29,420 nucleotides of DNA from positions 1-29,420 of the forward strand of contig CAZVZC010000026.1 of NCBI GenBank assembly GCA_964631415.1, written 5' to 3'. The notes below the pieces were generated by a model that was not told the origin of the DNA, did not search any database, and saw only the letters and a list, made by a program, of their open reading frames with translations. The position numbers and the translations under genes are program-made. How positions within the stretch are numbered: position 1 is the stretch's first letter; each line of letters begins with the position of its first letter. This stretch comes from an uncultured archaeon (GTDB lineage: Archaea > Asgardarchaeota > Thorarchaeia > Thorarchaeales > Thorarchaeaceae). Shown one piece after another: positions 5,070 to 19,728 of the stretch.

Positions 5070-5324
5070 TTGCAAGCACGATGGCAGGGATTTCGAGGAT
5101 ATAAGGAATTGATTGGAGCGCATCGAAGAGGGCCTGAGGATTGAAAGAGGAAACACGACTATGGAAGGAAACGCCTTGTTGAAACAGTGTTCAGAATGCT
5201 GAAGGTGAGACTCACTAGGAGTCTGAGTTCAAAGAGATTCAAGGAGCAACGGCGAGAGTTGGTGATCAAGATGCTACTTCACAACTTGGGACGTCTGAAC
5301 TTCTTGGAGTGCGACAGGAGATGA
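5070..5324 (+). pseudogene. IS5-family (DDE) transposase C-terminal remnant
   Basis: Frame reads LQARWQGFRGYKELIGAHRRGPED*KRKHDYGRKRLVETVFRMLKVRLTRSLSSKRFKEQRRELVIKMLLHNLGRLNFLECDRR*. It contains a Y-x2-K-x3-E-x6-K variant of the YREK motif and a TGA at 5142-5144 where Trp is usual; the 5' part is missing. Confidence 0.8.
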
Positions 5325-5340
5325 CTTTTCACAAAGAGCC
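5070..5340 (+). mobile_element. Truncated IS5-family element (3' end with right terminal repeat at 5325-5340)
   Basis: Transposase fragment followed at once by CTTTTCACAAAGAGCC (reverse complement GGCTCTTTGTGAAAAG, a GGC-starting end typical of IS5-family elements). Confidence 0.7.
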
Positions 5341-5404
5341 CACGAGGAGCAAATGCTTATTATTCACCGGCACAGGACTGCTCATCCTAGCGAGGCGAGT
5401 AGAA

Positions 5405-6190
5405 ATGTCAGAACAAGATGTGCTCTATCAAGCTGCTGAAGGGGTTGCGACAATAACGATCAACCGCCCCAAGAAATACAATGCTCTGAACTCCGCTGTT
5501 GTGAAGACGCTGAGGGAGCTATTCAGACGGGCTGAAGAGGACCGTTCTGTCAGAGTCGTCGTCCTGACTGGTGCCGAGGAAAAGGCATTCGCCGCCGGGG
5601 CCGACATAAGTGAGTTCAAAGACAAGAACTCCTCCACGGTGAGAGCGCTTTCAGAGAACGGTCAAGAACTATGTAAGTACATAGAGTCGATGAGCAAGCC
5701 TGTCATCGCTGCCATCAATGGGTTTGCCCTAGGGGGCGGCTGCGAAGTCGCCATGGCTTGCGACATCCGGTATGCCTCGACCAACGCAAGGTTCGGTCAG
5801 CCGGAGATCAACCTGGGAATCATCCCCGGCTTTGGTGGGACTGTGCGCCTTCCGCGGCTCGTAGGCCTTGGGATTGCCAAGGAGCTTGTGTACAGTGGAG
5901 AACAGATCACGGCAGACGAAGCATTCAGGATTGGCCTTGTCAATAAGGTGTTTGAGAGCGTCTTGGCTCTCCGCGAGGGAACGATGAAGCTGGCAAAGAC
6001 ACTAGTAACTAAACCAGGCGTTGCGGTAAAGCTGGCTAAGCAGTCACTGAACAGATCTTGGGAGCTAGCGTTGGAAAAGAACCTCAAGTTCGAAGTTGAT
6101 ATGTTCTGCCAGACTTTCGACACGAGAGACAAGGAAGAGGGTGTTGATGCCTTTCTCTCCAAGAGAACGCCGAGCTTTTCTCACAAATAG
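5405..6190 (+). CDS. crt: Enoyl-CoA hydratase (crotonase)
   Basis: ITINRP..NAL, AFAAGADI, KPVIAAINGFALGGGCE, FGQPEINLGIIPGFGGT; both catalytic Glu present. Start ATG 5405; TTATTA TATA-like box at 5357-5362. Confidence 0.95.
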   Translation: MSEQDVLYQAAEGVATITINRPKKYNALNSAVVKTLRELFRRAEEDRSVRVVVLTGAEEKAFAAGADISEFKDKNSSTVRALSENGQELCKYIESMSKPVIAAINGFALGGGCEVAMACDIRYASTNARFGQPEINLGIIPGFGGTVRLPRLVGLGIAKELVYSGEQITADEAFRIGLVNKVFESVLALREGTMKLAKTLVTKPGVAVKLAKQSLNRSWELALEKNLKFEVDMFCQTFDTRDKEEGVDAFLSKRTPSFSHK

Positions 6191-6220: not shown

Positions 6221-7171
6221 CTATCTCTTCACCTTCAAGTAGCCGTTTCTCTCAGTGAGCAGTCCGCGTTCCGCAAGTCTGTCGATATGCTTCCTCAGCA
6301 TGAATTCCTCAAAGATGTAGAAGAGATCATTCGGTATGCGAGGGTAAATCGTTGGCAGGCTCGAGAGCTTATCAAGCGTATTGTGGCCCTGGGCGACCAG
6401 TTCGAGTATGCGTTTGTCACGCTTGTCAAAGACACCTAGGAACTCCGCAAGCCGTCCACGTAGGTCTTCTGTGACTGGGTCCAGCAAGTGGCCGCTTATG
6501 CCCATCTTTGGTGATAGGTTCATGATGTTCTTGATAGATGATTCGAACTGGTCCAGATCGCTGACCACGTTTCCATACCATGGTCCAAACGATGTGAGAT
6601 CAATGTCAACCAGTAGTATGGTGTTGTAGTCATTTATGCCGAAGCATGTATGATCATATGTATGTCCCGGGGTATGAAGAGGAAGGAGCCGCGTTTCTCC
6701 GCATTCTATCGGCTTGCCATTAGTGAAGTGGCCAGAAACCGCATAGTCTGAGGTAATGTGGGGAAGCCAAGTGGTGATGGTGGACATCCAGCCTGAGAAG
6801 CGTCGGTTGCTCTCGATGCCATAACACTCGACCATCCCTTGGAATGTGCTGACGCCTTTCTCTGCAAGGGGATGACATATTATCTCACATCCTGAGGCCT
6901 TTTGGAGCTCAGCAGCATACCCCTTGTGATCTATGTGAAAGTGTGTGAGTACTATTCGGTCAAGGTCTTTTATGGAATGTCCGAGGTCGGAGAGAGTCTT
7001 CAGGATGTGGTTCATGTTGGGTCCGGCGTCGACGAGAGTTATCACTTCGTCGTCAATCAGAAGTGCGTTCGCCTCGGGGAACCTTGACTTGTTTGCCCCA
7101 CGTATCAAGTGAACGTGAGGCACTATTTCAGTGTGGATCGGGTATTCTGACATTGGGCTAGTCCCGAGCAT
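6221..7171 (-). CDS. Metallo-beta-lactamase-fold hydrolase with a probable C-terminal winged helix
   Basis: LVDAG, THFHIDH (HxHxDH), HTPGHT, SGH. Alternative start ATG 7153. Confidence 0.9.
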   Translation of the reverse strand: MLGTSPMSEYPIHTEIVPHVHLIRGANKSRFPEANALLIDDEVITLVDAGPNMNHILKTLSDLGHSIKDLDRIVLTHFHIDHKGYAAELQKASGCEIICHPLAEKGVSTFQGMVECYGIESNRRFSGWMSTITTWLPHITSDYAVSGHFTNGKPIECGETRLLPLHTPGHTYDHTCFGINDYNTILLVDIDLTSFGPWYGNVVSDLDQFESSIKNIMNLSPKMGISGHLLDPVTEDLRGRLAEFLGVFDKRDKRILELVAQGHNTLDKLSSLPTIYPRIPNDLFYIFEEFMLRKHIDRLAERGLLTERNGYLKVKR

Positions 7172-7259: not shown

Positions 7260-8717
7260 ATGAGCCAACGCATTTTTGCAGTCTTCGATGTTGGGACAAC
7301 CGGAGCACGCTCTTGTCTTATCGACGAGGAAGGTCGCGAGGTGAGTAAGGCATACGAAGAGTATCCTCCGGTACCGCGTGAGCTAAAGACACACGAGCAA
7401 TTGGCAGAAACATTCTGGAGGACGGCCGTGAACACTATGCAGAGGGCTCTGTCCAGCTACCCTAGGGGTGCGAACTCAGTTGTCGCCTGTGTTCTGGCAA
7501 CCACGCGGGATTGCATCACACCTGTCGACAGGAAGGGACTTCCGCTCGCTCCGACAGTGACGTGGGTTGACAACCGATCCGGGACTAAGAGCAAGGAGAT
7601 GGCAGCCCAGATTGGGCCCCGCAAATCAGTCAATAAACTGATGTGGTTTCTTGAGAACAAGCCGGATCTGTTCAAGAAGGCCTACAAGTTCATCACGCTG
7701 GATGCTCTGATTAACAATCGGCTCTGCGGCAAGATGGTCACAGAGCCCGCGAATGCTAGGTATGGGCCCATCGACCATGCAACTCTGAAGTGGTCTGATG
7801 AGATGTGTCAGGCCACGGGAATCCCTGTCGACAAGCTGGCGGACATAGTGGACCCGGGGACTGTGATTGGCGAAGTCTCGCCCGAGGCCGCAAAGGCGAC
7901 AGGGCTCAGAAAGGGTACGATTGTGATCATGGGAAGTGGCGACCAGCAGTGTTCGGCACTTGGTACGGGCACTATTCAGACTGGTATAGTGAAGGCCACA
8001 ACGGGCACGGGCACATTCGTCATCACACACACTGAGGAACACATTGATGACCCGTACGTTATGTTCAGCAATCCGTCCGCTATCCCTGGCAAATGGATTC
8101 TAGAGGGCGTCATACCTGGAACAGGTCTGGCCTACAAGTGGTATCGAGACCAGTACTGTGAGCGCGAAGCCGCCATCGCTGCTGAAACAAACAGGAATGC
8201 CTACGAGGTAATTGAGGCATCCGCGAGCTCTGTCCCTGCCGGGAGCGATGGACTGGTCATCTTTCCTTTCATGGCTTACGGGAAGGGCATATTCTATGAT
8301 TTGAGCTTCAGTCATACGAAGGCCCATGTGGCTAGGGCGATAATGGAGGCCAATGGATATGGCATCAAGCTGTATGTAGACATGATGGAAAGCATGCTTG
8401 ATCTCAAGTTTAGTGAACTTCGCATAGACGGAGGTGGTGCGAACTCACCATTATGGAGGCAGATTCAAGCAGACTGCGCCAACAAGACAGTTGCACTGCC
8501 TAGGTCTCGCGATTCGACAGCGATAGGGGCCGCCATACTCGCAGCCGTTGGCACAGGCGTGTACAGCACATACACTGAAGCCGTGGACAACATGTTTCAG
8601 GTTGAAGAGCGCAGACAACCGATACCTGAGAATGTAGCGATCTATGAGAAGCAATTCGCGACATTCAACAAGCTGCTGATGGCAGAGATGCCGACACTGA
8701 TTGAACTCACGAGCTAG
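7260..8717 (+). CDS. FGGY-family carbohydrate/polyol kinase (not canonical GlpK)
   Basis: FDVGTTGAR, W.D.RS, GDQQCSALG, TTGTGTF, DGGGANS..W.QI.AD, TAIGAAILA. ATG 7260 follows GGTGA. Confidence 0.92.
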   Translation: MSQRIFAVFDVGTTGARSCLIDEEGREVSKAYEEYPPVPRELKTHEQLAETFWRTAVNTMQRALSSYPRGANSVVACVLATTRDCITPVDRKGLPLAPTVTWVDNRSGTKSKEMAAQIGPRKSVNKLMWFLENKPDLFKKAYKFITLDALINNRLCGKMVTEPANARYGPIDHATLKWSDEMCQATGIPVDKLADIVDPGTVIGEVSPEAAKATGLRKGTIVIMGSGDQQCSALGTGTIQTGIVKATTGTGTFVITHTEEHIDDPYVMFSNPSAIPGKWILEGVIPGTGLAYKWYRDQYCEREAAIAAETNRNAYEVIEASASSVPAGSDGLVIFPFMAYGKGIFYDLSFSHTKAHVARAIMEANGYGIKLYVDMMESMLDLKFSELRIDGGGANSPLWRQIQADCANKTVALPRSRDSTAIGAAILAAVGTGVYSTYTEAVDNMFQVEERRQPIPENVAIYEKQFATFNKLLMAEMPTLIELTS

Positions 8718-8842
8718 CATAGGCGGTATTCAGCGCTCCAGTGGGTGTGACCTCTCCAACAAGTGGAGGCCAGACCCCCCTTGCTCACGTTTCAACGAGT
8801 GACCAGACCCAATCAGGTTCTGGTCCAAGGCCAAATCCCTGG

Positions 8843-9109
8843 CTACTTGGTCGTCTTCTTCTCTTCTTCCTGTTTCTTTCTCTCTTCCCACAGGCGACCG
8901 AAGAACACAAGCGTGAGGACTAGTTCCGAACCTGTGACTCGCTGAGCCACGTACTCTATTGACTGGCTAATCGTGTCGCCGAACTCATACGCCTTGCGTG
9001 AGAGGTCGATCAGGTCCTCAAACCGATGTTCGGGGATTCCGAGAGCGTCGGTCAGCTTCTGGACATCGTGCTTTCCGATCACCAGAGTACCAAGATTGTA
9101 TGTCGGCAT
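8843..9109 (-). CDS. Small hypothetical protein, 88 aa
   Basis: ATG 9109 preceded by GGGGTGA RBS and a TTAAAA box near 9173-9178; globular helical composition with a charged tail; divergent from glpA. Confidence 0.8.
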   Translation of the reverse strand: MPTYNLGTLVIGKHDVQKLTDALGIPEHRFEDLIDLSRKAYEFGDTISQSIEYVAQRVTGSELVLTLVFFGRLWEERKKQEEEKKTTK

Positions 9110-9372
9110 CACAATCACCCCGGCGGCGCCGCCGTCATTCGCGCTTGGTAATTCATCTCATGGTTTCAGACCTTTTAACCTATCTAGCGCATGCGTCCCA
9201 TTTCGTTCTTGTTAGCGCTCCAGATGCTGGGCTCTCATGTCCCTTCCAGCGATAGCGAGATGCTTTCCGAAACCCTTGTATTGACGACTTGACACCCAAG
9301 ACACACGCCGCACTGCGAGAGGAGCGCCCGCGGACTTCCAAAGTTCCATCGCAGCGGCAGGCTGGACATTCG

Positions 9373-11031
9373 ATGACCGACTATGATGTGGTAGTAATTG
9401 GCGGCGGCAGTACCGGTACTGCCGTGGCTCGCGACTGTGCCCTACGTGGGCTGAAGACGCTCCTTTTGGAGAGAGATGACATTGCGTCAGCCACGGTCGG
9501 CACTTGCGCAGGGATGATCTCTTCGGGCTTCAAGTACTACGATGAGCCCGACATAATGGACATGTGTTCACAGGAGGTCGTCTATTTCCGTAGGATTGCC
9601 CGCCACATAATCATGAAGAATCCGATTCTGATGCCGTTCTCTGAGCTAGGGGAGTTGACTCGTGGGGGAGAGGCCAGCAGTTTCACAGATGAATACGCGA
9701 AGCGTGCGCAAGAGCGAGGTGTTCCTCCGGTCATGTTTCTCTCTCCGGAGGAGTCACTCAGTATCGAACCATCACTGAATCCTGACATGGCTGCCAGCTT
9801 GTACTACGAGGAGTTCTTCATCGACCCCTTCCGTCTCTGCTTGCTTCAGGCCATTGACGCCAAGCAACATGGCGCCACAATCAAGACCTACTGCGAAGTA
9901 ACAGGCATAGAAGCTACGAATCCTGTCAGGAGTGTCACTTTCTACAACAGAGCGACCAGACAGGTTGAGTGCGCCGGCGCGAAACTAATCGTGAATGCTG
10001 GCGGTCCGTGGGCCGGAAAAATTGCTGCAATGGCTGGCGCTCCACTGGAGCTCCGCTTGAACAAGGGCGCGCATGTCATTATGGACAGAAGAATCGTGAA
10101 CGTTGGGATTTCATCAAGAGCAGCTGATGGTCGTTGGATTTACCTCTATCCACATGAGAACACGACGCTCTTGGGTACAACCGCTCTCGACACATGGGAA
10201 GACCCAGATGTGATTGTCGCCAGTCATGACGAAATTGAGTATCTACTGAAAAGCATTGAATGGGTCGTGCCTTCTATTCGGCAGGCGAGGATAATTCGAA
10301 CAATGGAAGGTGTAAGACCTCTCGTTCCGGAATGGAAAAGATCTGAAGACAAGGTGACTAGGGGATACAGAATCATAGACCATGAGAAGGACGGTGTAGA
10401 TGGTCTGGTCAGCTTCACGGGAGGGAAGCTCGTGATGTGTAGGCATATGGCAGAGGCAGTAACCAATCTTGTGTCGAAGAAGCTTGGGAGGGAAGCCGTA
10501 TGCAGGACGCATCTTGATCCATTGCCCGGAAATGAGGCTGATGTCGATGTACTGGCACTTGCAGCTGAATACGGGTTGTCGCAGCACGCGGTCGAGAGGC
10601 TCAGAGCTAGGCGAGGTACTGAAACTTCTGCGGTCTTGGCTCTCACGAAGGAACATCCCGAATGGAAGTCTACCATCTGCACTTGTGAGCCGGTCATTGA
10701 AGCCGAATTGAGATACGCTATCCGGAATGAGTTCCCGCAGACGATTAACGATCTTAGACGCAGGCTCAGGCTTGGCACAGGTCCGTGCCAAGGAACATTC
10801 TGTACCTTCAAGGCTGCTGCCGTGTTGGCTGAGGAACTCGACTTCAGCGGTGAGCAGTATCAGCTTGAGATAATTGACTTCTTAGCAGAGCGCTGGAAGG
10901 GTAAGCGTCCACCCTTGAGAGGCGGACAGCTCGGACAGGAGGAATTGACACACGGCCTCTATGCATGCGTCGCCAACCTAGACCATTGTGACTTCGCTTA
11001 TGAACCGAAACCGTGGGAGGAGGCATCATAG
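9373..11031 (+). CDS. glpA: Anaerobic glycerol-3-phosphate dehydrogenase subunit A-like flavoprotein with C-terminal BFD-like [2Fe-2S] domain
   Basis: DVVVIGGGSTG, IDPFRL, VNAGGPWA, KGAH, LLGTT, GVRPL, GGKL...R.MAE, ICTCEPV...DLRRRLRLGTGPCQGTFC, ERWKG. Start ATG 9373. Confidence 0.9.
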   Translation: MTDYDVVVIGGGSTGTAVARDCALRGLKTLLLERDDIASATVGTCAGMISSGFKYYDEPDIMDMCSQEVVYFRRIARHIIMKNPILMPFSELGELTRGGEASSFTDEYAKRAQERGVPPVMFLSPEESLSIEPSLNPDMAASLYYEEFFIDPFRLCLLQAIDAKQHGATIKTYCEVTGIEATNPVRSVTFYNRATRQVECAGAKLIVNAGGPWAGKIAAMAGAPLELRLNKGAHVIMDRRIVNVGISSRAADGRWIYLYPHENTTLLGTTALDTWEDPDVIVASHDEIEYLLKSIEWVVPSIRQARIIRTMEGVRPLVPEWKRSEDKVTRGYRIIDHEKDGVDGLVSFTGGKLVMCRHMAEAVTNLVSKKLGREAVCRTHLDPLPGNEADVDVLALAAEYGLSQHAVERLRARRGTETSAVLALTKEHPEWKSTICTCEPVIEAELRYAIRNEFPQTINDLRRRLRLGTGPCQGTFCTFKAAAVLAEELDFSGEQYQLEIIDFLAERWKGKRPPLRGGQLGQEELTHGLYACVANLDHCDFAYEPKPWEEAS

Positions 11032-12399
11032 ATGGACATCGAAACTGACTTGGTTGTCATTGGAGGTGGCATGGCAGGTCTGGTTGCCGGTTCGGTCGCT
11101 GCCGAGGCTGGTCTCGATGTCGTCTTGCTGAGAAAGGGTCACGGAGCTACTGCGCAATCATCAGGTGCGATTGACATCATCGGGTATGCGCCCGGGGCTG
11201 CCACATATTTCATGAACCCTGTCGAGGGTCTACATGCTCTCAGTGCAATGTGTCCATTCCATCCGTATTCTGCGCTTGGTCGCTCGGAGGAAGGTCTTCC
11301 CACCGACCCCGACCAAGTTGTATCCCGTGTGCGCGACTCTGTGCGATGGCTCAAGGACAAGTTGAGTGGCTCGAGTGGTGCTCTGAAAGGTGATCTTGAG
11401 GAGAACATTCAGGCCATCAGCCTCCTTGGGACGTCCAAGCCCACATGTCTCGTCCAGGAAACCATGTGGAATGACATCCCGCCGACTCATGACAGTGTCA
11501 TCCTCTTTGCAGGTCTTCGGGGCCTGCCAGACTTCAATCCATCGTCGGCAGTCAAAGCCTTCATGGCCAACAGACTCTACGGCGAGGAAGGACCAAGGAA
11601 GGCAGTCAGCTGTCTTCTCGATGTTGCCCCATCTGGCAGACCATTCAACCTGTCCCAGATTGAGATAGCAAGGTATGTTGACCACGATGCTGGCTTGGCG
11701 GCCCTAGCGAATTCCCTTGAGGATCAAGTTCTCAAGACAGGGGCGGACTACGTCGCCGTACCACCTGTATTGGGGGTGGAGCGTGCGAGAGAGAATCGCA
11801 GAAAGCTTGAGGAGAAGACTGGCGCCGCTGTCTTTGAGCTGACGGCGTTTCCGCCATCCATACCAGGCTTGAGGCTGCAGGCTGGCCTTGAAACCGTTTT
11901 CAAGAAAACTGATGGTAGATTGCTGGCGGGTCATGAAGCCACGGGAGTTCACAAGGACGGCAACTTGATTCAGGCCATCACCGCAAGAGCGCCTCGACGA
12001 ACGATAGAGATAAGGTCGACTGCAGTGGTCCTTGCATCTGGGAAGTTTCTTGGAGGAGGGCTGGTTGGTGATGAAAGAGGTGTTCGCGAGTCGCTCATGG
12101 GACTACCTGTCGTAGATGGTAATCTGGTTCCGACTGGTGATTCTAGGCCACAGCGACTTACGAATGTGATACCGCTGACTCCAGAAGGTCATCCACTCTT
12201 TGGGGTTGGCCTTGCATTTGATACGAGTTTTCGTCCTGTGGATGCTGACGGCAGCCCGGCCGCTCAGAATCTGTTTGCTGCCGGTTCCGTTCTAGCAGGT
12301 TACAACTACGCAGTCGAGAAGAGTGGACTGGGCGTGGCACTTGCGACAGGTTTCGCGGCTGGAGCGAACGCCGCAGCCTACGTAAAGGGGGTGCAGTGA
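11032..12399 (+). CDS. glpB: Anaerobic glycerol-3-phosphate dehydrogenase subunit B-like flavoprotein
   Basis: DLVVIGGGMAGL, SSGAID, PPSIPGLRL, VLASGKFLGGGL, NLFAAGSVLAG, SGLGVALATG; GGAGGAGG RBS. Confidence 0.92.
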   Translation: MDIETDLVVIGGGMAGLVAGSVAAEAGLDVVLLRKGHGATAQSSGAIDIIGYAPGAATYFMNPVEGLHALSAMCPFHPYSALGRSEEGLPTDPDQVVSRVRDSVRWLKDKLSGSSGALKGDLEENIQAISLLGTSKPTCLVQETMWNDIPPTHDSVILFAGLRGLPDFNPSSAVKAFMANRLYGEEGPRKAVSCLLDVAPSGRPFNLSQIEIARYVDHDAGLAALANSLEDQVLKTGADYVAVPPVLGVERARENRRKLEEKTGAAVFELTAFPPSIPGLRLQAGLETVFKKTDGRLLAGHEATGVHKDGNLIQAITARAPRRTIEIRSTAVVLASGKFLGGGLVGDERGVRESLMGLPVVDGNLVPTGDSRPQRLTNVIPLTPEGHPLFGVGLAFDTSFRPVDADGSPAAQNLFAAGSVLAGYNYAVEKSGLGVALATGFAAGANAAAYVKGVQ

Positions 12400-13637
12400 T
12401 GAGCGACGAAGAAGCATACAAAGTCGTGAGTGCGACCCTCGAGAAAGAGCGGATTGTCCCCTTCAAGACCTATGAGCTTGAAGTTGTCCGCTCAGCAGAG
12501 AAGTGTGTGAACTGTGGACTCTGCCTCAATCACTGCCCTGTGGTCAGGGCCGTGGGTGTTGACAGGTTCAGCGGTCCACGCAGCATTGCAGTCGAGCTGA
12601 GCCGTTCTCCACCTGATTTCTGGTCAACGGCCGATAAGGTCTATCTCTGTACGAGCTGCGGCACTTGCCGTGAGGTATGTCCCTACAATGTCAATGTGCC
12701 TGACATTGTCAGTATGGTCCGCGCAAGGATCTTCAAGCAGAGACCAGACCTTGTGCCAAGAGCTCTCCGGGCTGTTCATGAAACCCTTGCCAGACACTCA
12801 CTTGCATTCGAACCTTGGGACGATCCCAATGAGAAGATTGAGAGCCGCAATGCAAGGCTCCAAGCTGTGGGCTTGCCCTTCACCCAAGATCGCGTTGTCA
12901 GAGGTGCTGAGGTTCTGTTCTACCCCGGCTGCCAAGCGGAAGAGCGCGCACAAGAAGTCAAGGAGGCTGCCAAGTTCATTCTGAACTACTTTGGAGTTGA
13001 CTTCACTCTGCTGGAAGAAATGAGCTGTTGCGGCCTTCCTTCAAGGTTGATAGGTGATGACGAAACGTCAAGGTCGCTTGCCGCTCGCCTGAAAGAGAAG
13101 GTGAGTTCGCTCGGTGTGAAGAAGATTGTCACGACCTGTGCTGGATGCACCTCGAACCTGTCTGAGATGAGTGTCCGTGACAATTGGGGAGTGCCAGTGT
13201 ATCATCTGATTGAGTTCTTGGCTGAGGCGATTGGGCTTGAACGGCTCTCCGAGGCGTTCGCTGAGGGCAGCCGGGCTGGTGAAGTCTTGACAACGATCCA
13301 CGATCCATGTCATTTGATTCGCCATACTTCGCGTCAGATTGCGGACCATGTCATCGCCGTCCTGAACCTGATTCCTAACGTAACCATAGTCGCCTCTGGA
13401 GTGGCAGACTCGTGTTGTGGGGGTGGAGGAATGGTCGGATACCACTCAAGAGACGTGGCAGATGCAGTTGTCGCACACAATATTGAGGCGATATCAGCAA
13501 CCAAGGCGAAGCAGCTTGTGGCCCCTTGTCCTCTCTGTACAGCACAAATCGAGCGCAATCTGTTCAACGCCGGCAGTGCCATCCAGGTGGATGACCTAGC
13601 CGTGTTCATTGCTCAAAGGCTTCCACAACAGAGGTGA
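12399..13637 (+). CDS. glpC: GlpC/HdrD-like Fe-S oxidoreductase (two [4Fe-4S] motifs plus two CCG domains)
   Basis: CVNCGLCLNHCP, CTSCGTCREVCP, YPGC, SCCG, TCAGC, HDPCHL, CCGGGG, PCPLC; start overlaps the glpB stop. Confidence 0.85.
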   Translation: MSDEEAYKVVSATLEKERIVPFKTYELEVVRSAEKCVNCGLCLNHCPVVRAVGVDRFSGPRSIAVELSRSPPDFWSTADKVYLCTSCGTCREVCPYNVNVPDIVSMVRARIFKQRPDLVPRALRAVHETLARHSLAFEPWDDPNEKIESRNARLQAVGLPFTQDRVVRGAEVLFYPGCQAEERAQEVKEAAKFILNYFGVDFTLLEEMSCCGLPSRLIGDDETSRSLAARLKEKVSSLGVKKIVTTCAGCTSNLSEMSVRDNWGVPVYHLIEFLAEAIGLERLSEAFAEGSRAGEVLTTIHDPCHLIRHTSRQIADHVIAVLNLIPNVTIVASGVADSCCGGGGMVGYHSRDVADAVVAHNIEAISATKAKQLVAPCPLCTAQIERNLFNAGSAIQVDDLAVFIAQRLPQQR

Positions 13638-15073
13638 GCCCAGACTTGCTAGACTCAAAGACTAAGAGTGCTCTCCTAGAGCGCATCAGAGCTGTCGTTG
13701 GTAATGACCATGTGACCGCGAATGAAACAGATGCCATCCTCAACGCCCACGATGCGAACCCACTGAGCGAAGCGAAGATCAGGGCCGGGGAGTCTCTGCC
13801 ATTGGCTGACCTCATCGTCTTCCCTGCGTCCACGGAGGAGGTTTCTAGAGTCCTGAAGGTGGCCAACGAGCTCAGGGTGCCTGTTGTCCCAGTCGGAGGA
13901 GGTGCGGGGACCTGCGGGGGTACTCTTCCCGTCTATGGTGGTATCCAGCTCGACCTCAAACGGATGGACAAGGTCATCCGGATCGACAATCAGTCCATGC
14001 TCGTACAAGCGCAGGCGGGAGTTGTGGGAATCGATCTTGAGGAGGAAGTGAACAGGCAGGGCTACACGACTGGCCATACACCGACTTCATTGAGAGCGTC
14101 CAATGTGGGTGGCTTCATCGCAACACGATCTGGGGGCTCGATGTCGTCTCTCTATGGCAAGATAGAAGACCTCACCTTGGGGCTCGAGGTTGTCCTGGCA
14201 GACGGATCTGTCATACGGTGTAAAGCTGTCCCTCGACACTCCGTCGGGCCAGACTTGAAGCAGCTGTTCATTGGTTCTGAAGGAACGCTCTGCGTGATCA
14301 CAGAGGCCACTCTACGCCTCTTTCCGTTGCCAAAGGAGAGACGCTTCAGGAGCATGTGCTTTCCTGATGTCCACAGTGGTCTTGAGGCCATCAGACTCAT
14401 CTTTCGTGAAGGCGTGCTCCCGTCAGTTGTGCGGTTGTATGATCCAGAAGACACCGCCTTGCACGTTAGTTCGCACTTCGATGTGGAGGAGGGAAGCTGC
14501 ATGCTCATGCTTGCGTTCGACGGTCGAACTGAGAAAGTTGCGATTGAGGAGAGTATTGCAGCCGAAATCTGCCTGAAGAATGGGGCTAAAGACTATGCTG
14601 AAGGTCCATCAAGATACTGGTGGGAACACAGGTACGACATGTACTATCCGACGAAGTTCGCTACTTCGGGGTACTCTGTCGGTGACACCATCGACATCGG
14701 TGCGACCTACGACAAGCTTGAGAATGTCTACCATGAGATGAAGAAAGCCATGGAGGCGCATGACGCCGTCGTCATGTCACACTTCTCTCACATGTATCCA
14801 AATGGAGGGAGCATCTACATGATTTTCTTCGTTTCGAAGGAAGATGCGAGTAGTGCATGGTCGGCCTACAAGAGGATCTGGGATGATGGTGTGGCAGCCT
14901 GCCTCAGAATGGGCGGCACAATGAGTCACCAGCATGGTGTTGGAACTACAAGGAGCACGTACACAGAAGCGGAATGGGAATCGGGCTTTCAGGTTCTCAG
15001 GCGAATCAAGGAGGTGCTCGATCCGAATGGCATAATGAACCCGGGCAAGCTTGGGATGGGAGGACGAAGCTGA
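13634..15073 (+). CDS. FAD-linked oxidoreductase of the VAO/PCMH family, alkyl-dihydroxyacetone-phosphate-synthase (AGPS)-like
   Basis: P.GGG....GG, GHTPTS..SNVGGFIATRSGG..S..YGKIEDL, GPDLKQLFIGSEGTL, VVRLYD, SHFSHMY.NG.SIY, SHQHGVG, DPNGIMNPGKL; GTG start overlaps the upstream stop. Confidence 0.88.
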   Translation: MSPDLLDSKTKSALLERIRAVVGNDHVTANETDAILNAHDANPLSEAKIRAGESLPLADLIVFPASTEEVSRVLKVANELRVPVVPVGGGAGTCGGTLPVYGGIQLDLKRMDKVIRIDNQSMLVQAQAGVVGIDLEEEVNRQGYTTGHTPTSLRASNVGGFIATRSGGSMSSLYGKIEDLTLGLEVVLADGSVIRCKAVPRHSVGPDLKQLFIGSEGTLCVITEATLRLFPLPKERRFRSMCFPDVHSGLEAIRLIFREGVLPSVVRLYDPEDTALHVSSHFDVEEGSCMLMLAFDGRTEKVAIEESIAAEICLKNGAKDYAEGPSRYWWEHRYDMYYPTKFATSGYSVGDTIDIGATYDKLENVYHEMKKAMEAHDAVVMSHFSHMYPNGGSIYMIFFVSKEDASSAWSAYKRIWDDGVAACLRMGGTMSHQHGVGTTRSTYTEAEWESGFQVLRRIKEVLDPNGIMNPGKLGMGGRS

Positions 15074-16194
15074 TGGATCAGGCAAAGACTGCTGAGCAGC
15101 TCCGCCTGTGCGCTGCCTGCCCCAAGATGTGTCGTCACATGTGCCCTACCTTTCTGGCTTGGAGGTCTGACTCTCCTACTCCTCATGGCCGTGCACTCCT
15201 TGTCTACCAAGAAATGAATGGTACTCGCAATCTGGATGAGAGAGCTATTGAGGTACTGTACCAGTGTCTGGAGTGTTCACAGTGCCTCGTGTGGTGTCTT
15301 CCTCAGGTAGATGTTGCGGCAATAGTAGAGGACACGAGAACGAGGCTAGTGGAGCAACACCGTTATCCTCAAGGTCTGGACAAGATCTCCTCCGCGATAG
15401 CAACCGATCATAATCCCTTTGGAGAATTGCACAGCAAGAGAAACAAGTGGTTCGCTCCAGTCAAGAATGTCGGCAAGAGAATAGTATACTTCAGCGGCTG
15501 CACCGCCGCCTATCGAGAGAACGGCATAGCTCAGAGCACCGTTTCTCTACTGACCAAGCTCGGCTACAGAGTGAGCGTCATGAACGATGAATGGTGTTGC
15601 GGTTCGCCCCTTTTCAGGACGGGCTTCAGGAATCAGGGGCTCGAACAGGCCCGCCATAATGCTGGTGCGCTCAACAAACAGGACGCACAAGAGATAGTAG
15701 TCACTTGTCCGGGTTGTTACAGAACACTCTCACGTGACTATCCAGAGAATGGTATTCAGCTCGCAAAGCCCGTCATCCACATCAGCCAGCTTCTGGAGCG
15801 ACATCTGGACAATCTCAACACCGCTGACTTTGGCGGTTTCATCACGTTTCATGATCCCTGCCACCTGGGCAGGCACTGTGGTATTTACGATCCTCCAAGA
15901 AGAGTTCTCAGCAAGATATCAGGCGGCAAGTTAGTTGAGATGCAGCGTAACAGGGAGAACGCGATGTGCTGTGGCAATGGTGCTGGCATGAGAATGCTCT
16001 TCGAAGAGCAGGCGAGGGTGATAGGGAAAGCCCGTGTACAACAAGCCCGAGATGTCGGTGCAGGGTTCTTGGTCACCTCGTGTCCTTTCTGCAAGAACAT
16101 GCTTGCCTCTCAAGCTGGGGAAGGATTGACGGTCCTCGACCTTCCCGAAATCGTCATGGCATCATATAGTTCGCACCCAAAGGTCAAGATGTGA
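15073..16194 (+). CDS. Second Fe-S/CCG-domain oxidoreductase (HdrD/GlcF-like)
   Basis: CAACPKMCRHMCP, CLECSQCLVWC, FSGC, WCCGSP, TCPGC, FHDPCHLGR, MCCGNG, SCPFC; ATG 15073 overlaps the upstream TGA (TGATG). Confidence 0.9.
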   Translation: MDQAKTAEQLRLCAACPKMCRHMCPTFLAWRSDSPTPHGRALLVYQEMNGTRNLDERAIEVLYQCLECSQCLVWCLPQVDVAAIVEDTRTRLVEQHRYPQGLDKISSAIATDHNPFGELHSKRNKWFAPVKNVGKRIVYFSGCTAAYRENGIAQSTVSLLTKLGYRVSVMNDEWCCGSPLFRTGFRNQGLEQARHNAGALNKQDAQEIVVTCPGCYRTLSRDYPENGIQLAKPVIHISQLLERHLDNLNTADFGGFITFHDPCHLGRHCGIYDPPRRVLSKISGGKLVEMQRNRENAMCCGNGAGMRMLFEEQARVIGKARVQQARDVGAGFLVTSCPFCKNMLASQAGEGLTVLDLPEIVMASYSSHPKVKM

Positions 16195-16234
16195 AAACAG
16201 ATTAAGCTTCAACCAGAACCTGCTCGTGATTCCT

Positions 16235-17350
16235 ATGGATGCGGAAGACCTACTCAGGCTGAAAGTTCGCCTCCTAACTGAAGGTGTTACCCTCCCTGAG
16301 GGTCAGTCAACCGGCAGAAGAGGCGGCGCTGGGCCGGTTGGTAGTAGGTATTTCGTGCTGCCAAATGGTCGTCCGTGTGGGATTCCCGTGCGTCAGGGTC
16401 GTTTGGCAGAGAGGTTCGGGTCGAAGCCCCTCGTCCCAACTAGAAACCCCTCGATCTGGTTTCATGATGGAACGACTCGTCTGAAAGCAGTACCGCGACC
16501 CAAGTTCTACGACCTGTCTACAACCGATGGCATCTCATATCAGAAGCTGGCTCTGCTTCATGGGAAGGACACTCTGGCAACGACAGTCTATCAGTCTTGC
16601 AGATATTGGAACAAGGGTGAACAGTGCAAGTTCTGCACGATACCGCTCTCTCACTCTGCTGGTGACACAGTGCTTGAAAAGACGCCCGATCAGATTGCCG
16701 AGGTAGTTGATGCAGCAGAGAGAGAAGGTGTGATCACAAGTGTGCTACTCACAACCGGGACTCCTTCAGGACCTGACATGGGTTGTGAGCGCCTCATTGG
16801 AATCGTGAAACGCATACGCGAGTTGAGCACGATTCCTGTCGGCGTGCAGTTCGAGCCCTCTGTCGATGAAACCTTGATTCTGAAACTTGCCGATGCTGGA
16901 GCCAACGCAGTGGGCATCCACATAGAATCCGCCGATGAGTCGATTAGGGAAAAGATGTGCCCTGGGAAGTTCAAGCAAGGGTCTCTTGAGCTGTATCGTA
17001 AGAGCTGGGAGTGTGCACTCAGTCACTTCGCGAGGGGCAATGTGAGCACTTTCATACTGCATGGACTGGGTGAAGATATCGAAACAACACTCAGACTGAT
17101 CCGGGAAACCTCAGAGATGGGTATCATGCCGGTAGTGACTCCCGTGCGGCCTGCGCCGGGGAGTCAGCTCGTAGACTTCACTCCTCATTACGTCGGGAAT
17201 CTTGAGGAAACGATGGAGTTCTACATGAGAGTGGGTGAGATTCTACACAGCTACCACCTCAACCCCAAGAAGACTGCGGCTGGTTGCCACAGATGTGGTG
17301 GCTGCACGCCTATTCAGGAAGCATTCGACTGGGCCCGGATGAAACACTAG
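16235..17350 (+). CDS. Radical SAM protein, MSMEG_0568/LipS1-like (biotin-synthase-related) group
   Basis: GRRGGAGP, ALLHG.D.LATTV.Q.C, CRYWNKGEQCKFC (Cx8Cx2C), LLTTGT, GIHIES, C-terminal AGCHRCGGC. Confidence 0.85.
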   Translation: MDAEDLLRLKVRLLTEGVTLPEGQSTGRRGGAGPVGSRYFVLPNGRPCGIPVRQGRLAERFGSKPLVPTRNPSIWFHDGTTRLKAVPRPKFYDLSTTDGISYQKLALLHGKDTLATTVYQSCRYWNKGEQCKFCTIPLSHSAGDTVLEKTPDQIAEVVDAAEREGVITSVLLTTGTPSGPDMGCERLIGIVKRIRELSTIPVGVQFEPSVDETLILKLADAGANAVGIHIESADESIREKMCPGKFKQGSLELYRKSWECALSHFARGNVSTFILHGLGEDIETTLRLIRETSEMGIMPVVTPVRPAPGSQLVDFTPHYVGNLEETMEFYMRVGEILHSYHLNPKKTAAGCHRCGGCTPIQEAFDWARMKH

Positions 17351-17465
17351 TATTCCTCTGGATGCCAGTCGGTGTTCCTATTACAGGATTCCGCCGTGTT
17401 CCGGAATCGGAATCACGCAGGCAGAGATTTATGAACGTTCCTTCACCTGCTATAGGAGAGTCCTT

Positions 17466-17984
17466 ATGGCGTACATACCGGCGGAGCAGATCCGGATAGT
17501 AGAGTTCGGAGAGGATGACGCAAGAGAGATCTCCAGACTCTTCAAGAAGGTGTGGCCGCTTGCTACAGAGTACCCGGAGTCATGGAGGAAAAAGAGGTCA
17601 TACTCCGCAAAGCAGATAGTTGAAGAGATGCGGGCCGGCTACCATTACTTCGGGAGTAGACTCGGGGGCAGAATCGTAGGGGTCTACAAGGCCAAGACCT
17701 CGGAGAAGGGCTTCTTCGGAGAACACCAGACAGTGAGTCCTTCGTGCAGGGCGAGTGGGCTCGCTTCAGCCATGTACATCCACTTCATTGAGTATGCACG
17801 TAGTCATGGTTGCTCCAGAAACTACTGCAACATTCTTGTGGGTCAAGACGTGGGCAAGCGTCTCATGGACAAATTCGGATTTCGCCCTTGGGGTGATCCA
17901 TACGAGCAAGAGCCCGGGATGTTCGTTCAGATGTATGAACGTCCTGTGACGCAAGAACCTGAAGAGAATCCAAGGCGTTCGTAA
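17466..17984 (+). CDS. GNAT-family N-acetyltransferase
   Basis: VSPSCRASGLAS (V.P..R..G.A acetyl-CoA motif), KFGF; AGGAG RBS and TTTATG box at 17428-17433. Confidence 0.85.
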   Translation: MAYIPAEQIRIVEFGEDDAREISRLFKKVWPLATEYPESWRKKRSYSAKQIVEEMRAGYHYFGSRLGGRIVGVYKAKTSEKGFFGEHQTVSPSCRASGLASAMYIHFIEYARSHGCSRNYCNILVGQDVGKRLMDKFGFRPWGDPYEQEPGMFVQMYERPVTQEPEENPRRS

Positions 17985-18060
17985 GCAGGTTGTGTCTTCA
18001 GAAAGACTATAATACAGTCCAACTCGCCACAATGCCCAGAACCCTGACGAAGGCCGGCCA

Positions 18061-19728
18061 ATGCAGATCTATCCGATAATCGTTGATGGCAAGGAAGTGG
18101 ACACTGGGAAACACACGACGTTTCCCGACATGGACAAGGTCGTCGTCGATCCGGGCATCGCAATAGCTCTCCAGATGAGAGAGGCATCATCGATGCAGCG
18201 ATTGGTCTTCTCCAGACTGCCGATCCTTATACCGCACAGTACTCCGGAGATGAAATACCTGAGAGACTACCGGAGGGCTCACGGCGTTCCTGCGTATTCG
18301 AAAGATGAGCTTGATGATGCCACTTATGCAAAGGTCGCCCTCTCTCGTGAGTCAGACATCGAGAGGGCAATTGCAGCCGGAGTGCGAGACAAGACAAGTC
18401 TCTACAATCCCTTCAAGCTGTTGGGCACCGGTGTCACGTTGGATGAACGCGTGGAGGCACTCTATCAGGCAGGCCTCGCCGTAAAGAAGCGGTTCCAAGA
18501 AGTGCGCGACGTTTCGGTCAAAGAGGGAGTTCCCATAAAGACCTTCGAATGGACTTGGACGATGTTCACAGAGTACCTCGAACGAGAAACCTTCGAGCTC
18601 TGGGGCCGGGACTTGGACTTGAAGGAAGCCCCTGGCAAAGATGGAGGAAAGAACTTTCAGTTTCGCGAACCCTACGGTGTCACATGTCTGTTCACTCCCT
18701 ACAACTCCCCACTTGCTTTGGGGATTCTCAGCATAACCTCATCGATACTTGCTGGAAACGCGACGATACTGAAACCACCAAGCAAGGTCCCTTTGAGCAC
18801 GATCCTCTTGGGCCAAGCATTCTTGCAGACTTTCCAAGAGATGGGGCTACCTTCTGCCATGATTCAGGTTCTCACGGGCGGAGGAAAGAGTCTCATGGAT
18901 AGACTCACTTCTGACCGTAGGGTCGGTGCCATCGTTTGGTACGGTGATAGTGACACGGGTTTGGAGCTATGGTCTCAGGCCATAAAAAGAAGAATCCAAA
19001 TGGCACCAGAGTTGGCTGGAAGCGATGCCTGTCTCGTCTGGGGTCGCGATGTCGATCTTGAGTTCGCTGCCAAGATGATTGTGAAGGGTAGATTCCTCGG
19101 AAGCGGCCAAGCCTGCATGGCTGTCAAACGCCTGCTTGTGCAAGACACTCTGCACGATGATTTAGTTCGCCTTGTCGTCGAAGAGGCTGAGAAGCTGCAC
19201 CTTGGCCGCCCTTCGGATCCCAATGTCAGTCTTCCACCACTGGGACTCACAGCCATGTACCTGTTACTGGATCAGATTGAAGATGCTAAGGCAAAGGGTG
19301 CGAAGGTGCTGACTGGCGGATACAGATGCAACTACCTATCGGAAGCGGATCCTGCAGGTCTCTTCTACAAGCCCACGGTATTGACCAACGTGAAGGAGGC
19401 TATGAGAATCATGCAGGAAGAGGTCTTTGCACCTGCTCTGCCGGTGTTGTCAGTCCAAAGCGTTGATGAAGCACTTCGAGTAGCTAATGCCTCACGGTTT
19501 GGACTGCGCTCCTCGGTGTTCGCTGATGATCAGTCGGTGAGCTTGAGATGGGCAAAGGAGATCGAGGCCGCAGGTGTGGCCGTTGGTCAGGATCATCTAT
19601 ACTTCGACCCCCATATGCCCCATCTCGGTGGTTACAAGGACTCAGGAATAATCGGAGCCAAATACTTCCCCGTGATGCTCACGCGCATGAAGTATGTGCA
19701 TACAGGACCGACCGCCGAGTTCTTGTGA
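18061..19728 (+). CDS. Aldehyde dehydrogenase family protein (divergent, with N-terminal insertion)
   Basis: REPYGV, PYNSP, AGNATILKP, ELAG, GQAC (catalytic Cys), EEVFAP, GGYKDSG. Confidence 0.93.
   Translation: MQIYPIIVDGKEVDTGKHTTFPDMDKVVVDPGIAIALQMREASSMQRLVFSRLPILIPHSTPEMKYLRDYRRAHGVPAYSKDELDDATYAKVALSRESDIERAIAAGVRDKTSLYNPFKLLGTGVTLDERVEALYQAGLAVKKRFQEVRDVSVKEGVPIKTFEWTWTMFTEYLERETFELWGRDLDLKEAPGKDGGKNFQFREPYGVTCLFTPYNSPLALGILSITSSILAGNATILKPPSKVPLSTILLGQAFLQTFQEMGLPSAMIQVLTGGGKSLMDRLTSDRRVGAIVWYGDSDTGLELWSQAIKRRIQMAPELAGSDACLVWGRDVDLEFAAKMIVKGRFLGSGQACMAVKRLLVQDTLHDDLVRLVVEEAEKLHLGRPSDPNVSLPPLGLTAMYLLLDQIEDAKAKGAKVLTGGYRCNYLSEADPAGLFYKPTVLTNVKEAMRIMQEEVFAPALPVLSVQSVDEALRVANASRFGLRSSVFADDQSVSLRWAKEIEAAGVAVGQDHLYFDPHMPHLGGYKDSGIIGAKYFPVMLTRMKYVHTGPTAEFL

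Follow-up and report, generated by a model that had tools for sequence, protein, structure and literature searches.

A redox operon with a variant GlpABC and an AGPS-like flavoprotein

We analyzed a stretch of 29,420 nucleotides (contig CAZVZC010000026.1 of assembly GCA_964631415.1; hereafter the window) from an uncultured archaeon of the Thorarchaeaceae. It carries an operon in which a variant of the glycerol-3-phosphate (G3P) dehydrogenase GlpABC is joined to a flavoprotein resembling alkyldihydroxyacetonephosphate synthase (AGPS) and to an iron-sulfur (Fe-S) protein of the CCG type. The genome of the window (81 contigs, 2.16 Mb in total) has a completeness of 85%, and the closest homologues of the window proteins carry Thorarchaeota or Promethearchaeota names. 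Genes were called from lists of open reading frames (ORFs) together with Pfam and NCBIfam scans, and the junctions between them were read directly from the sequence.

The operon begins with glpA (9373–11031, + strand; the ORF opens at 9289 and the ATG lies at 9373), whose product is a DAO flavoprotein with a DAO_C domain and a BFD-like [2Fe-2S] domain. It is followed by the gene of a GlpB-like FAD subunit (11032–12399, +), which passes its model TIGR03378 with 202 bits for a cut-off of 174, and by that of a GlpC-like Fe-S subunit (12396/12399–13637, +) with Pfam Fer4_8, two CCG domains and two [4Fe-4S] motifs. The GlpABC layout of an A subunit with DAO and BFD, a B subunit with FAD and a C subunit with Fer4 and CCG is present in one operon. 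The AGPS-like gene (13634–15073, +) encodes 479 amino acids (aa) with the FAD_binding_4 and FAD-oxidase_C domains (PF01565 and PF02913), and the last gene (15073–16194, +) encodes a second CCG Fe-S protein of 373 aa with eight N-terminal cysteines and two Pfam CCG domains. No clear transmembrane stretch was found in any subunit.

The stop and start codons of glpA and glpB abut (TAG and ATG at 11031/11032), glpB and glpC overlap in GTGATG (12396–12401), and glpC overlaps the AGPS-like gene in GTGA (13634–13637). The AGPS-like and CCG genes share TGATG (15071–15075), with GGAGG 10 nt upstream, and are translationally coupled. A preliminary description of the window had taken these five genes as one unit, and all the junctions it named are found in the sequence.

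An FGGY-family kinase gene (7260–8717, +) lies upstream. Its ORF opens at 7131, but the alignment of homologues begins at the ATG at 7260, giving 485 aa with Pfam FGGY_N and FGGY_C. The upstream position of the kinase agrees with the preliminary description, but a conserved small ORF of 91 codons (8843–9118, − strand) intervenes before glpA. By tblastn, this ORF is found at the same place with 58–68% identity in 5 of 6 same-family loci; it matched no Pfam family and could be a regulator of divergent genes. Because a conserved ORF sits on the opposite strand before glpA, the kinase gene, although adjacent, is probably transcribed separately.

The linked GlpA belongs to a separate paralogue clade

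The window GlpA scores 419 bits against TIGR03377, below the equivalog cut-off of 553. In a phylum-wide search with the GlpA model, all AGPS-linked GlpA copies fell in the range of 416–466 bits, below the same cut-off. The difference is also visible in the motifs. In place of the GRxHGLLHSG[AG]RY found in E. coli and canonical Asgard GlpA, the window protein has ATVGTCAGMISSGFKY, so that the GRxHGLLHSGARY of canonical GlpABC is rewritten to GTCAGMISSGFKY. When aligned, the linked copies share G[TA]C[AG]GMIS[SGA]GxKY, LNKG[AS]H and GGKLV[MVIL][CY]R, whereas the canonical copies and E. coli GlpA have GRxHGLLHSG[AG]RY, PxKG[TS]L and GGKLTTYR. The Arg and His of the canonical motif are also conserved in solved GlpD and GlpO. 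Bona fide G3P dehydrogenases (G3PDHs) in general conserve the G3P site (PMC11962113).

Canonical copies exist in related genomes. In families f7 and f19, second GlpA copies score 558–633 bits, keep GRxHGLLHSGARY and stand in their own kinase-GlpA-GlpB-CCG operon. Three such canonical operons (L139, L140 and L141, of genomes G038, G006 and G076) occur in the same genomes as a variant GlpABC/AGPS-like operon; their kinase is likewise not GlpK and is 35% identical to the window kinase. In families f10 and f16, canonical GlpA is found beside true GlpK, 59% identical to E. coli GlpK. The window's genome, at 85% completeness, holds the variant GlpA only.

Judged from their sequences, the AGPS-linked GlpA proteins are a separate paralogue clade with a rewritten substrate motif, and this rewriting suggests that they do not act on plain sn-G3P. 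The paralogue analysis of the linked GlpA is new here. It supports the earlier suggestion that this GlpA is a real variant with a substrate other than plain G3P, as the below-cut-off score and the rewritten motif indicate; these do not in themselves give the identity of the substrate. The second, rewired GlpABC paralogue in Asgard archaea offers a clear pair for comparative enzymology.

The flavoprotein combines an AGPS-like active site with a plain two-domain architecture

In a search of the PDB, the best solved relatives of the flavoprotein by sequence were the AGPS of Dictyostelium (221 bits) and guinea pig (189 bits), followed by LctD, a putative oxidoreductase and D-lactate dehydrogenases (D-LDHs) at about 150–164 bits. 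Catalysis by AGPS requires R352, Y508 and R447 (PMC3509576). R267 of the window protein aligns with R352 of Dictyostelium AGPS (R419 in guinea pig) and Y395 with Y508 (Y578 in guinea pig), and both are invariant among 11 Asgard homologues. At the HHH loop of AGPS, the window protein reads H432-Q-H434, with the outer histidines kept; among 105 sequences, the loop is HHH in 74 and HQH in 9. Dictyostelium R447 aligns with the Thr of YYPTKF, at a position that is not conserved among the aligned Asgard proteins.

The window protein is also shorter than AGPS (479 aa vs 584–658 aa). The alignment with AGPS begins at residue 127 of the Dictyostelium protein and residue 181 of the guinea-pig protein, and the gate domain found only in AGPS has no counterpart in the window protein. 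In AGPS, this extra domain holds a gate-keeping helix that controls a C16-sized channel (PMC3509576).

The preliminary description had called the flavoprotein AGPS-like. The PDB scores (221 vs 164 bits) and the retention of Arg, Tyr and HxH agree with this and place it nearer to AGPS than to the 2-hydroxyacid dehydrogenases. In 2-hydroxyacid dehydrogenases, the GEHG-type motif has a role in metal and substrate binding; the window protein reads SHQHGVG at the site where E. coli GlcD reads SGEHGIG. Its score against the GlcD model TIGR00387 is 230 bits for a cut-off of 568. The AlphaFold model of the flavoprotein has a predicted local distance difference test (pLDDT) value of 82, and Foldseek gave template modeling (TM) scores of 0.85 to AGPS and 0.84 to D-LDH, which become 0.74 and 0.88 when normalised by the target.

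By size and shape, the flavoprotein is thus an ordinary FAD-linked oxidase of two domains whose active-site residues resemble those of AGPS, and it is of the E. coli YgcU type, a group of uncharacterised AGPS-like FAD oxidoreductases. All the features of this type are present: about 475 aa, FAD_binding_4 with FAD-oxidase_C, the Arg/Tyr/HxH set, an FGGY kinase in the vicinity and an electron acceptor of its own.

A probable dedicated Fe-S partner for the flavoprotein

In the Asgard survey, for which 20 AGPS-like loci from more than 10 families were fetched (f1 being the window's own family), a CCG gene adjoins the AGPS-like gene in all 20. The same neighbour is seen in Lentisphaerae, Dehalococcoidia, Bacillota, Bathyarchaeota, Thermoplasmatales and others. 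The predicted complex of the two window proteins scored 0.89 (best control 0.00) by a measure whose mark is reached by 58 of 80 solved complexes and by 2 of 110 mismatched pairs, a pass that may reflect memory of, or likeness to, solved complexes. Separate runs had at least 91% of contacts in common, the pLDDT of the partner was at least 91, and the predicted interface places the N-terminal Cys-rich domain of the partner (residues 8–77) on the FAD domain. This model supports binding between the AGPS-like protein and the CCG protein, without proving it.

E. coli YgcU is found with EtfAB-like and ETF-QO-like genes instead of a CCG gene. The recruitment of CCG proteins in anaerobes and of electron-transfer flavoproteins in E. 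coli suggests a family of dehydrogenases and not of redox-neutral transferases. The AGPS reaction is redox-neutral and proceeds on oxidised FAD, so AGPS would need none of the electron acceptors that this family recruits (PMC3509576). We therefore consider that the AGPS-like/CCG pair is very probably a redox enzyme.

A quinone is one possible electron acceptor. A gene for a MenA-family prenyltransferase is present in the window's genome, and no MqnA was found there (completeness 85%). At locus L002 of this genome (G000:C20:21497-25275), a MenA-family gene (129 bits, over the cut-off) is situated some 1.6 kb upstream of the gene for a further FAD-linked oxidase paralogue, which a CCG-type gene accompanies. 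Such a paralogue may represent a dehydrogenase linked to quinone.

An FGGY kinase distinct from GlpK

Among the NCBIfam models, LsrK (230 bits) and XylB (223 bits) score best with the window kinase, GlpK gives 166 bits, and all are below their cut-offs. For the GlpK equivalog TIGR01311 the cut-off is 590 bits. Identity to E. coli YgcE is 27%. No GlpK above the cut-off was detected in the window's genome (85% complete). The kinase is hence non-canonical, as the preliminary description had stated.

In the kinase tree, which was built with FastTree only and is to be read with care, the window kinase falls in an Asgard clade apart from true GlpK. We had expected the AGPS-linked kinases to form a single co-evolving clade. 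This was rejected, as they fall into at least 4 FGGY groups, one of which holds true GlpK, and some AGPS-linked kinases group within the GlpK clade.

Linkage of the module in Asgard archaea and bacteria

The AGPS-like/YgcU branch is present in 88 of the 151 Asgard genomes sampled, as well as in many bacteria, including E. coli. Its invariant Asgard core is the pair of AGPS-like and CCG genes, with an FGGY kinase usually alongside. GlpABC lies within 8 kb of this core in five families (f1, f7, f13, f19 and f15) and is adjacent in four of them; in f15 it is found 3 kb off, on the other strand. The order kinase-GlpA-GlpB-GlpC-AGPS-like-CCG is kept outside f1 in f7, f13 and f19. Families f2, f8 and f9 have kinase-AGPS-like-CCG without GlpABC, and f12, f24 and f27 have the AGPS-like and CCG genes alone. 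The pair occurs in 16 of 19 genomes of f12 and GlpA in none of the 19, so GlpA is not an obligatory upstream step.

Within f1, the stretch from the crotonase to TatD is syntenic throughout, and adjacency within this family consequently says little. In the Asgard loci outside f1, no aldehyde dehydrogenase (ALDH), thiolase, DUF35, crotonase, metallo-beta-lactamase-fold (MBL), radical-SAM or GNAT gene stands beside the module. Of the linkage put forward in the preliminary description, the part from the kinase through GlpABC to the AGPS-like and CCG genes is found in five Asgard families, whereas the ALDH and beta-oxidation genes accompany it in the window's family only.

In genome G112 (f2), the module is adjoined by a gene with DAO and BFD domains of the FngA type, the other known type of anaerobic G3P oxidoreductase (PMC13689815), and by a Pyr_redox_2 gene. 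At L042:4964-8157 of this genome, these two genes and a 120-aa ORF lie beside kinase-AGPS-like-CCG, in the place taken by GlpABC in Thorarchaeota.

In bacteria, a GlpD-like gene, an FGGY kinase or both flank the AGPS-like gene; such loci come from Acidimicrobiia, other Actinomycetota, Paraburkholderia, a deltaproteobacterium and alpha- and beta-proteobacteria. GlpD-like genes are seen in those of Acidimicrobiia, Actinomycetes, Paraburkholderia and the deltaproteobacterium. Further neighbours are DeoR regulators, MFS and ABC carriers, a short-chain dehydrogenase/reductase (SDR) and class II aldolases. This set of neighbours is a soluble-carbohydrate context. A Pfam census of 105 neighbours in anaerobe loci gave weak enrichment beyond the core genes.

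A quick IQ-TREE analysis of 105 AGPS-like sequences, which did not include eukaryotic AGPS, placed the window protein in a well-supported clade with members from f1, f2, f7, f8, f12, f13, f15, f19 and anaerobic bacteria, nearly all of them beside a CCG gene. The Loki-type sequences, YgcU and the GlpD-linked bacterial forms belong to other clades. Kinases and G3PDH-type enzymes are linked to AGPS-like genes across these clades, and the linkage therefore recurs in the family with non-orthologous partners. We also tried the long Myxococcota forms (about 690 aa) as an anchor for true AGPS in the tree. This was rejected: the Sorangium protein scores 191 bits against AGPS (the window protein, 221), and its added length is internal or C-terminal.

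Several loci show further arrangements. In three Loki-type loci, the AGPS-like gene comes directly after a gene of about 495 aa with the same orientation (L052:7620-9113, L061:6356-7834 and L063:6340-7824); the L052 copy of this gene, the one that was scanned, matched no Pfam family. In f12, a SAM-dependent methyltransferase gene is found before the AGPS-like/CCG pair (L050:10892-11641 and L051:8323-9087). In the bacterial loci L058, L082 and L103, two tandem AGPS-like genes are followed by one CCG gene, a layout that recalls glcD-glcE-glcF. In genome G023 (L048:11394-12356), an ORF with LAGLIDADG and helix-turn-helix domains sits between the AGPS-like gene and glpC and splits the operon.

A possible route for a small phosphorylated compound

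The locus is a real, conserved orphan redox module, in which two flavin/Fe-S dehydrogenases of the GlpC/HdrD-coupled kind stand beside a sugar-type kinase. On balance, we favor the view that the operon encodes an uncharacterised anaerobic redox route for a small, soluble, phosphorylated glycerol-like compound of 3 to 5 carbons. The preliminary description had named the catabolism of an unusual polyol as an alternative, and this fits the data better than the ether-lipid model it preferred. The substrate of the AGPS-like/CCG pair is probably a small soluble phosphorylated compound; that this compound is the product of the variant GlpA is a more tentative suggestion, which we find rather doubtful.

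In such a route, the FGGY kinase would, going by its family, phosphorylate a free polyol or ketose. The variant GlpABC would then work as GlpA does on G3P, oxidising a secondary alcohol group of this phosphate ester and so yielding an alpha-hydroxy-ketone phosphate. An alpha-hydroxy-ketone phosphate is favored as the substrate of the AGPS-like enzyme because the residues that enolise the head of dihydroxyacetone phosphate (DHAP) are kept. More speculatively, the enzyme might use its Arg, Tyr and His-x-His residues to attack this DHAP-like head in a net two-electron oxidation, probably at C1. The electrons would pass from FAD to the [4Fe-4S] domain and the CCG clusters of the partner and on to a quinone or a thiol/disulfide-type acceptor. 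Alternatively, the two enzymes may work side by side, each on its own substrate, the two substrates being related compounds or stereoisomers.

Several observations weigh against the proposed route. Its chemical steps are all inferred. The AGPS-linked kinases are not one clade, so several substrates across lineages are possible. In f12, neither a kinase nor GlpA is found near the AGPS-like/CCG pair, and a fixed three-step route is therefore not universal. No transporter or regulator that would confirm a soluble nutrient was found in the Asgard operon. The fold had to be rejected as a basis for choosing between AGPS and D-LDH, with TM scores of 0.85 and 0.84. Finally, one Loki locus has a neighbour of lipid type, namely an alpha/beta hydrolase gene located after the kinase (L052:13612-14442).

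This hydrolase would suit the oxygen-independent breakdown of ether lipids that the preliminary description had proposed. There, the kinase would act on an O-alkyl(isoprenyl)glycerol, GlpABC would form alkyl-DHAP, the AGPS-like enzyme would remove the ether substituent by hydrolysis or C1 oxidation and pass electrons to the CCG protein, and the ALDH and beta-oxidation enzymes would consume the chain. Among solved proteins, AGPS is indeed nearest in sequence, and Arg, Tyr and HxH are retained. The non-canonical GlpA and kinase would suit a substituted glycerol, and ALDH, crotonase, thiolase and DUF35 genes lie nearby within the window's family. However, the ALDH and beta-oxidation genes are unlinked outside this family, and an inserted cassette and the opposite-strand MBL gene stand between them and the operon. 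Thiolase/DUF35 pairs in archaea also serve the formation of acetoacetyl-CoA for the mevalonate pathway, so they need not mean beta-oxidation. To our knowledge, no FGGY kinase acts on a lipid, and one report assigns the mammalian alkylglycerol kinase to ACAD10, which is not an FGGY protein (PMC13596139). The gate-helix domain specific to AGPS has no counterpart, and Thr aligns with R447, which is essential in Dictyostelium AGPS (PMC3509576). E. coli and other bacterial counterparts stand in a sugar-type context, and f12 has the enzyme and no GlpA. The ether-lipid model thus finds no positive support beyond the homology to AGPS and has no tie to lipids; we consider it very unlikely and give as little credence to an oxygen-independent route in which the glycerol-ether core of membrane lipids, be it an isoprenyl ether of archaea or an alkylglycerol of bacteria, is broken by oxidative cleavage of its C1-O bond. 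If true, such cleavage would explain the departure of GlpA and the kinase from glycerol-specific forms.

The same homology to AGPS could be read as ether-lipid synthesis, in which case the flavoprotein would be a true AGPS and supply alkyl-DHAP, for instance for Asgard ether lipids of mixed or bacterial type. JGI labels many of the homologues alkyldihydroxyacetonephosphate synthase, and the catalytic residues are partly kept. Against this, the redox-neutral AGPS needs no electron partner (PMC3509576) and the window protein always has one, the AGPS-specific domain and R447 are missing, and linkage to a kinase and a dehydrogenase follows a catabolic logic. No DHAP acyltransferase or fatty-acyl reductase was found in the locus. 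We regard synthesis as extremely improbable. Somewhat less remote, though still unlikely, is a combination of two unrelated functions, in which the kinase and GlpABC serve ordinary glycerol via G3P to DHAP and the AGPS-like/CCG pair is a GlcD/GlcF-type dehydrogenase of D-lactate, glycolate or another D-2-hydroxyacid. The pairing of an FAD-oxidase with a CCG Fe-S protein is the architecture of GlcDF and the Fe-S D-LDH, the NCBIfam GlcD model does give 230 bits, the fold fits D-LDH as well as AGPS (TM 0.84, target-normalised 0.88), and GlpB is over its model cut-off. But the GlcD score is far under 568, SHQHGVG and SIY, both of the AGPS type, stand where 2-hydroxyacid dehydrogenases have their GEHG and GDGN-type motifs, and the linked GlpA is a distinct below-cut-off paralogue whose canonical copies are elsewhere. 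Moreover, AGPS-like genes accompany FGGY kinases and G3PDH-type genes in distant lineages, which is unexpected for a lactate enzyme.

Comparison with known systems

The nearest known counterpart is E. coli K-12. YgcU (b4463) is a full-length homologue with 33% identity over 479 aa and equal Arg, Tyr and H-x-H positions, and the ygc cluster likewise has an FGGY kinase, YgcE, nearby and encodes a dedicated electron acceptor. The preliminary description had pointed to ygcE/ygcU, and the identities (27% and 33%), the shared residues and the nearby kinase make it a true counterpart. It differs in having the EtfAB-like YgcQR with YgcNO in place of the CCG Fe-S subunit, and an SDR and two MFS carriers without GlpABC; YgcU itself falls in another clade of the AGPS-like tree. 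Literature searches found no characterisation of ygcU, of Rv2251/glpD1 or of anaerobic ether-lipid degradation. The E. coli homologue is tractable, which makes the question testable at the bench.

AGPS (also ADPS; EC 2.5.1.26; PDB 2uuu and 4bby) is the best solved relative by both sequence and fold, with R352, Y508 and the outer histidines of HHH conserved in the window protein. The latter lacks the gate-helix domain, has Thr at R447 and HQH for HHH, and, as judged from gene adjacency and the complex model, appears to have an obligatory Fe-S partner, unlike the redox-neutral AGPS. A survey of the origin of AGPS kept proteins of 500–700 aa only, and proteins of about 475 aa were left out by this filter (bioRxiv 10.1101/2025.10.10.681575). 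The Asgard version is among the closest prokaryotic relatives, seen here, of the eukaryotic ether-lipid enzyme.

With GlpABC of E. coli and Haloferax, the operon shares the three subunits and their order, the BFD [2Fe-2S] domain of GlpA, a GlpB that passes its model and, in GlpC, a pair each of Fer4 and CCG domains; it differs in the window GlpA (419 vs 553 bits), with its rewritten motif and its separate paralogue clade. GlcDEF and the Fe-S D-LDHs are alike in combining a FAD_binding_4/FAD-oxidase_C flavoprotein with a CCG subunit, but the window motifs are of the AGPS type and not GEHG, and the context is a kinase with a G3PDH instead of glycolate or lactate genes.

In the erythritol pathway of Brucella, the FGGY kinase EryA is followed by EryB, a GlpD-like dehydrogenase. 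The two systems are alike in that an FGGY kinase phosphorylates a polyol and a flavoenzyme of the G3PDH family oxidises the polyol phosphate, but the Brucella pathway has no AGPS-like enzyme. None of the isomerases of the erythritol route was seen here, and the route itself was not specifically tested. The AGPS-like/YgcU branch is widespread, has no assigned function and is repeatedly wired to glycerol-type kinases and G3PDH-type enzymes. This repeated wiring suggests that the metabolism of glycerol or polyol phosphates may include a step that has yet to be described.

Flanking genes

An Rfam scan of the whole window matched no family. A gene for a radical-SAM protein of the MSMEG_0568 type (16226–17350, +; TIGR04043 280 bits, below the cut-off of 304) starts 31 nt past the CCG gene, and its membership in the operon is uncertain. 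It is followed by a GNAT acetyltransferase gene (17466–17984, +; Pfam), syntenic in same-family loci. Every same-family locus, and L057 as well, has both genes after the CCG gene; no other Asgard family does. The ALDH gene (18061–19728, +; 555 aa; Pfam Aldedh) has lactaldehyde dehydrogenase as its top NCBIfam model, with 237 bits for a cut-off of 650. The preliminary description had it downstream, which is correct; it does not follow directly, as the radical-SAM and GNAT genes intervene.

Upstream of the operon lie a thiolase gene (359–1609), a DUF35 gene (1603–2028) and an enoyl-CoA hydratase (crotonase) gene (5309–6190). The first two had been noted as nearby and are, but the crotonases spoken of in the plural come down to a single copy in the window. 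The MBL gene (6221–7171, −) diverges from the kinase gene across a spacer of 88 nt, an arrangement kept in all same-family loci.

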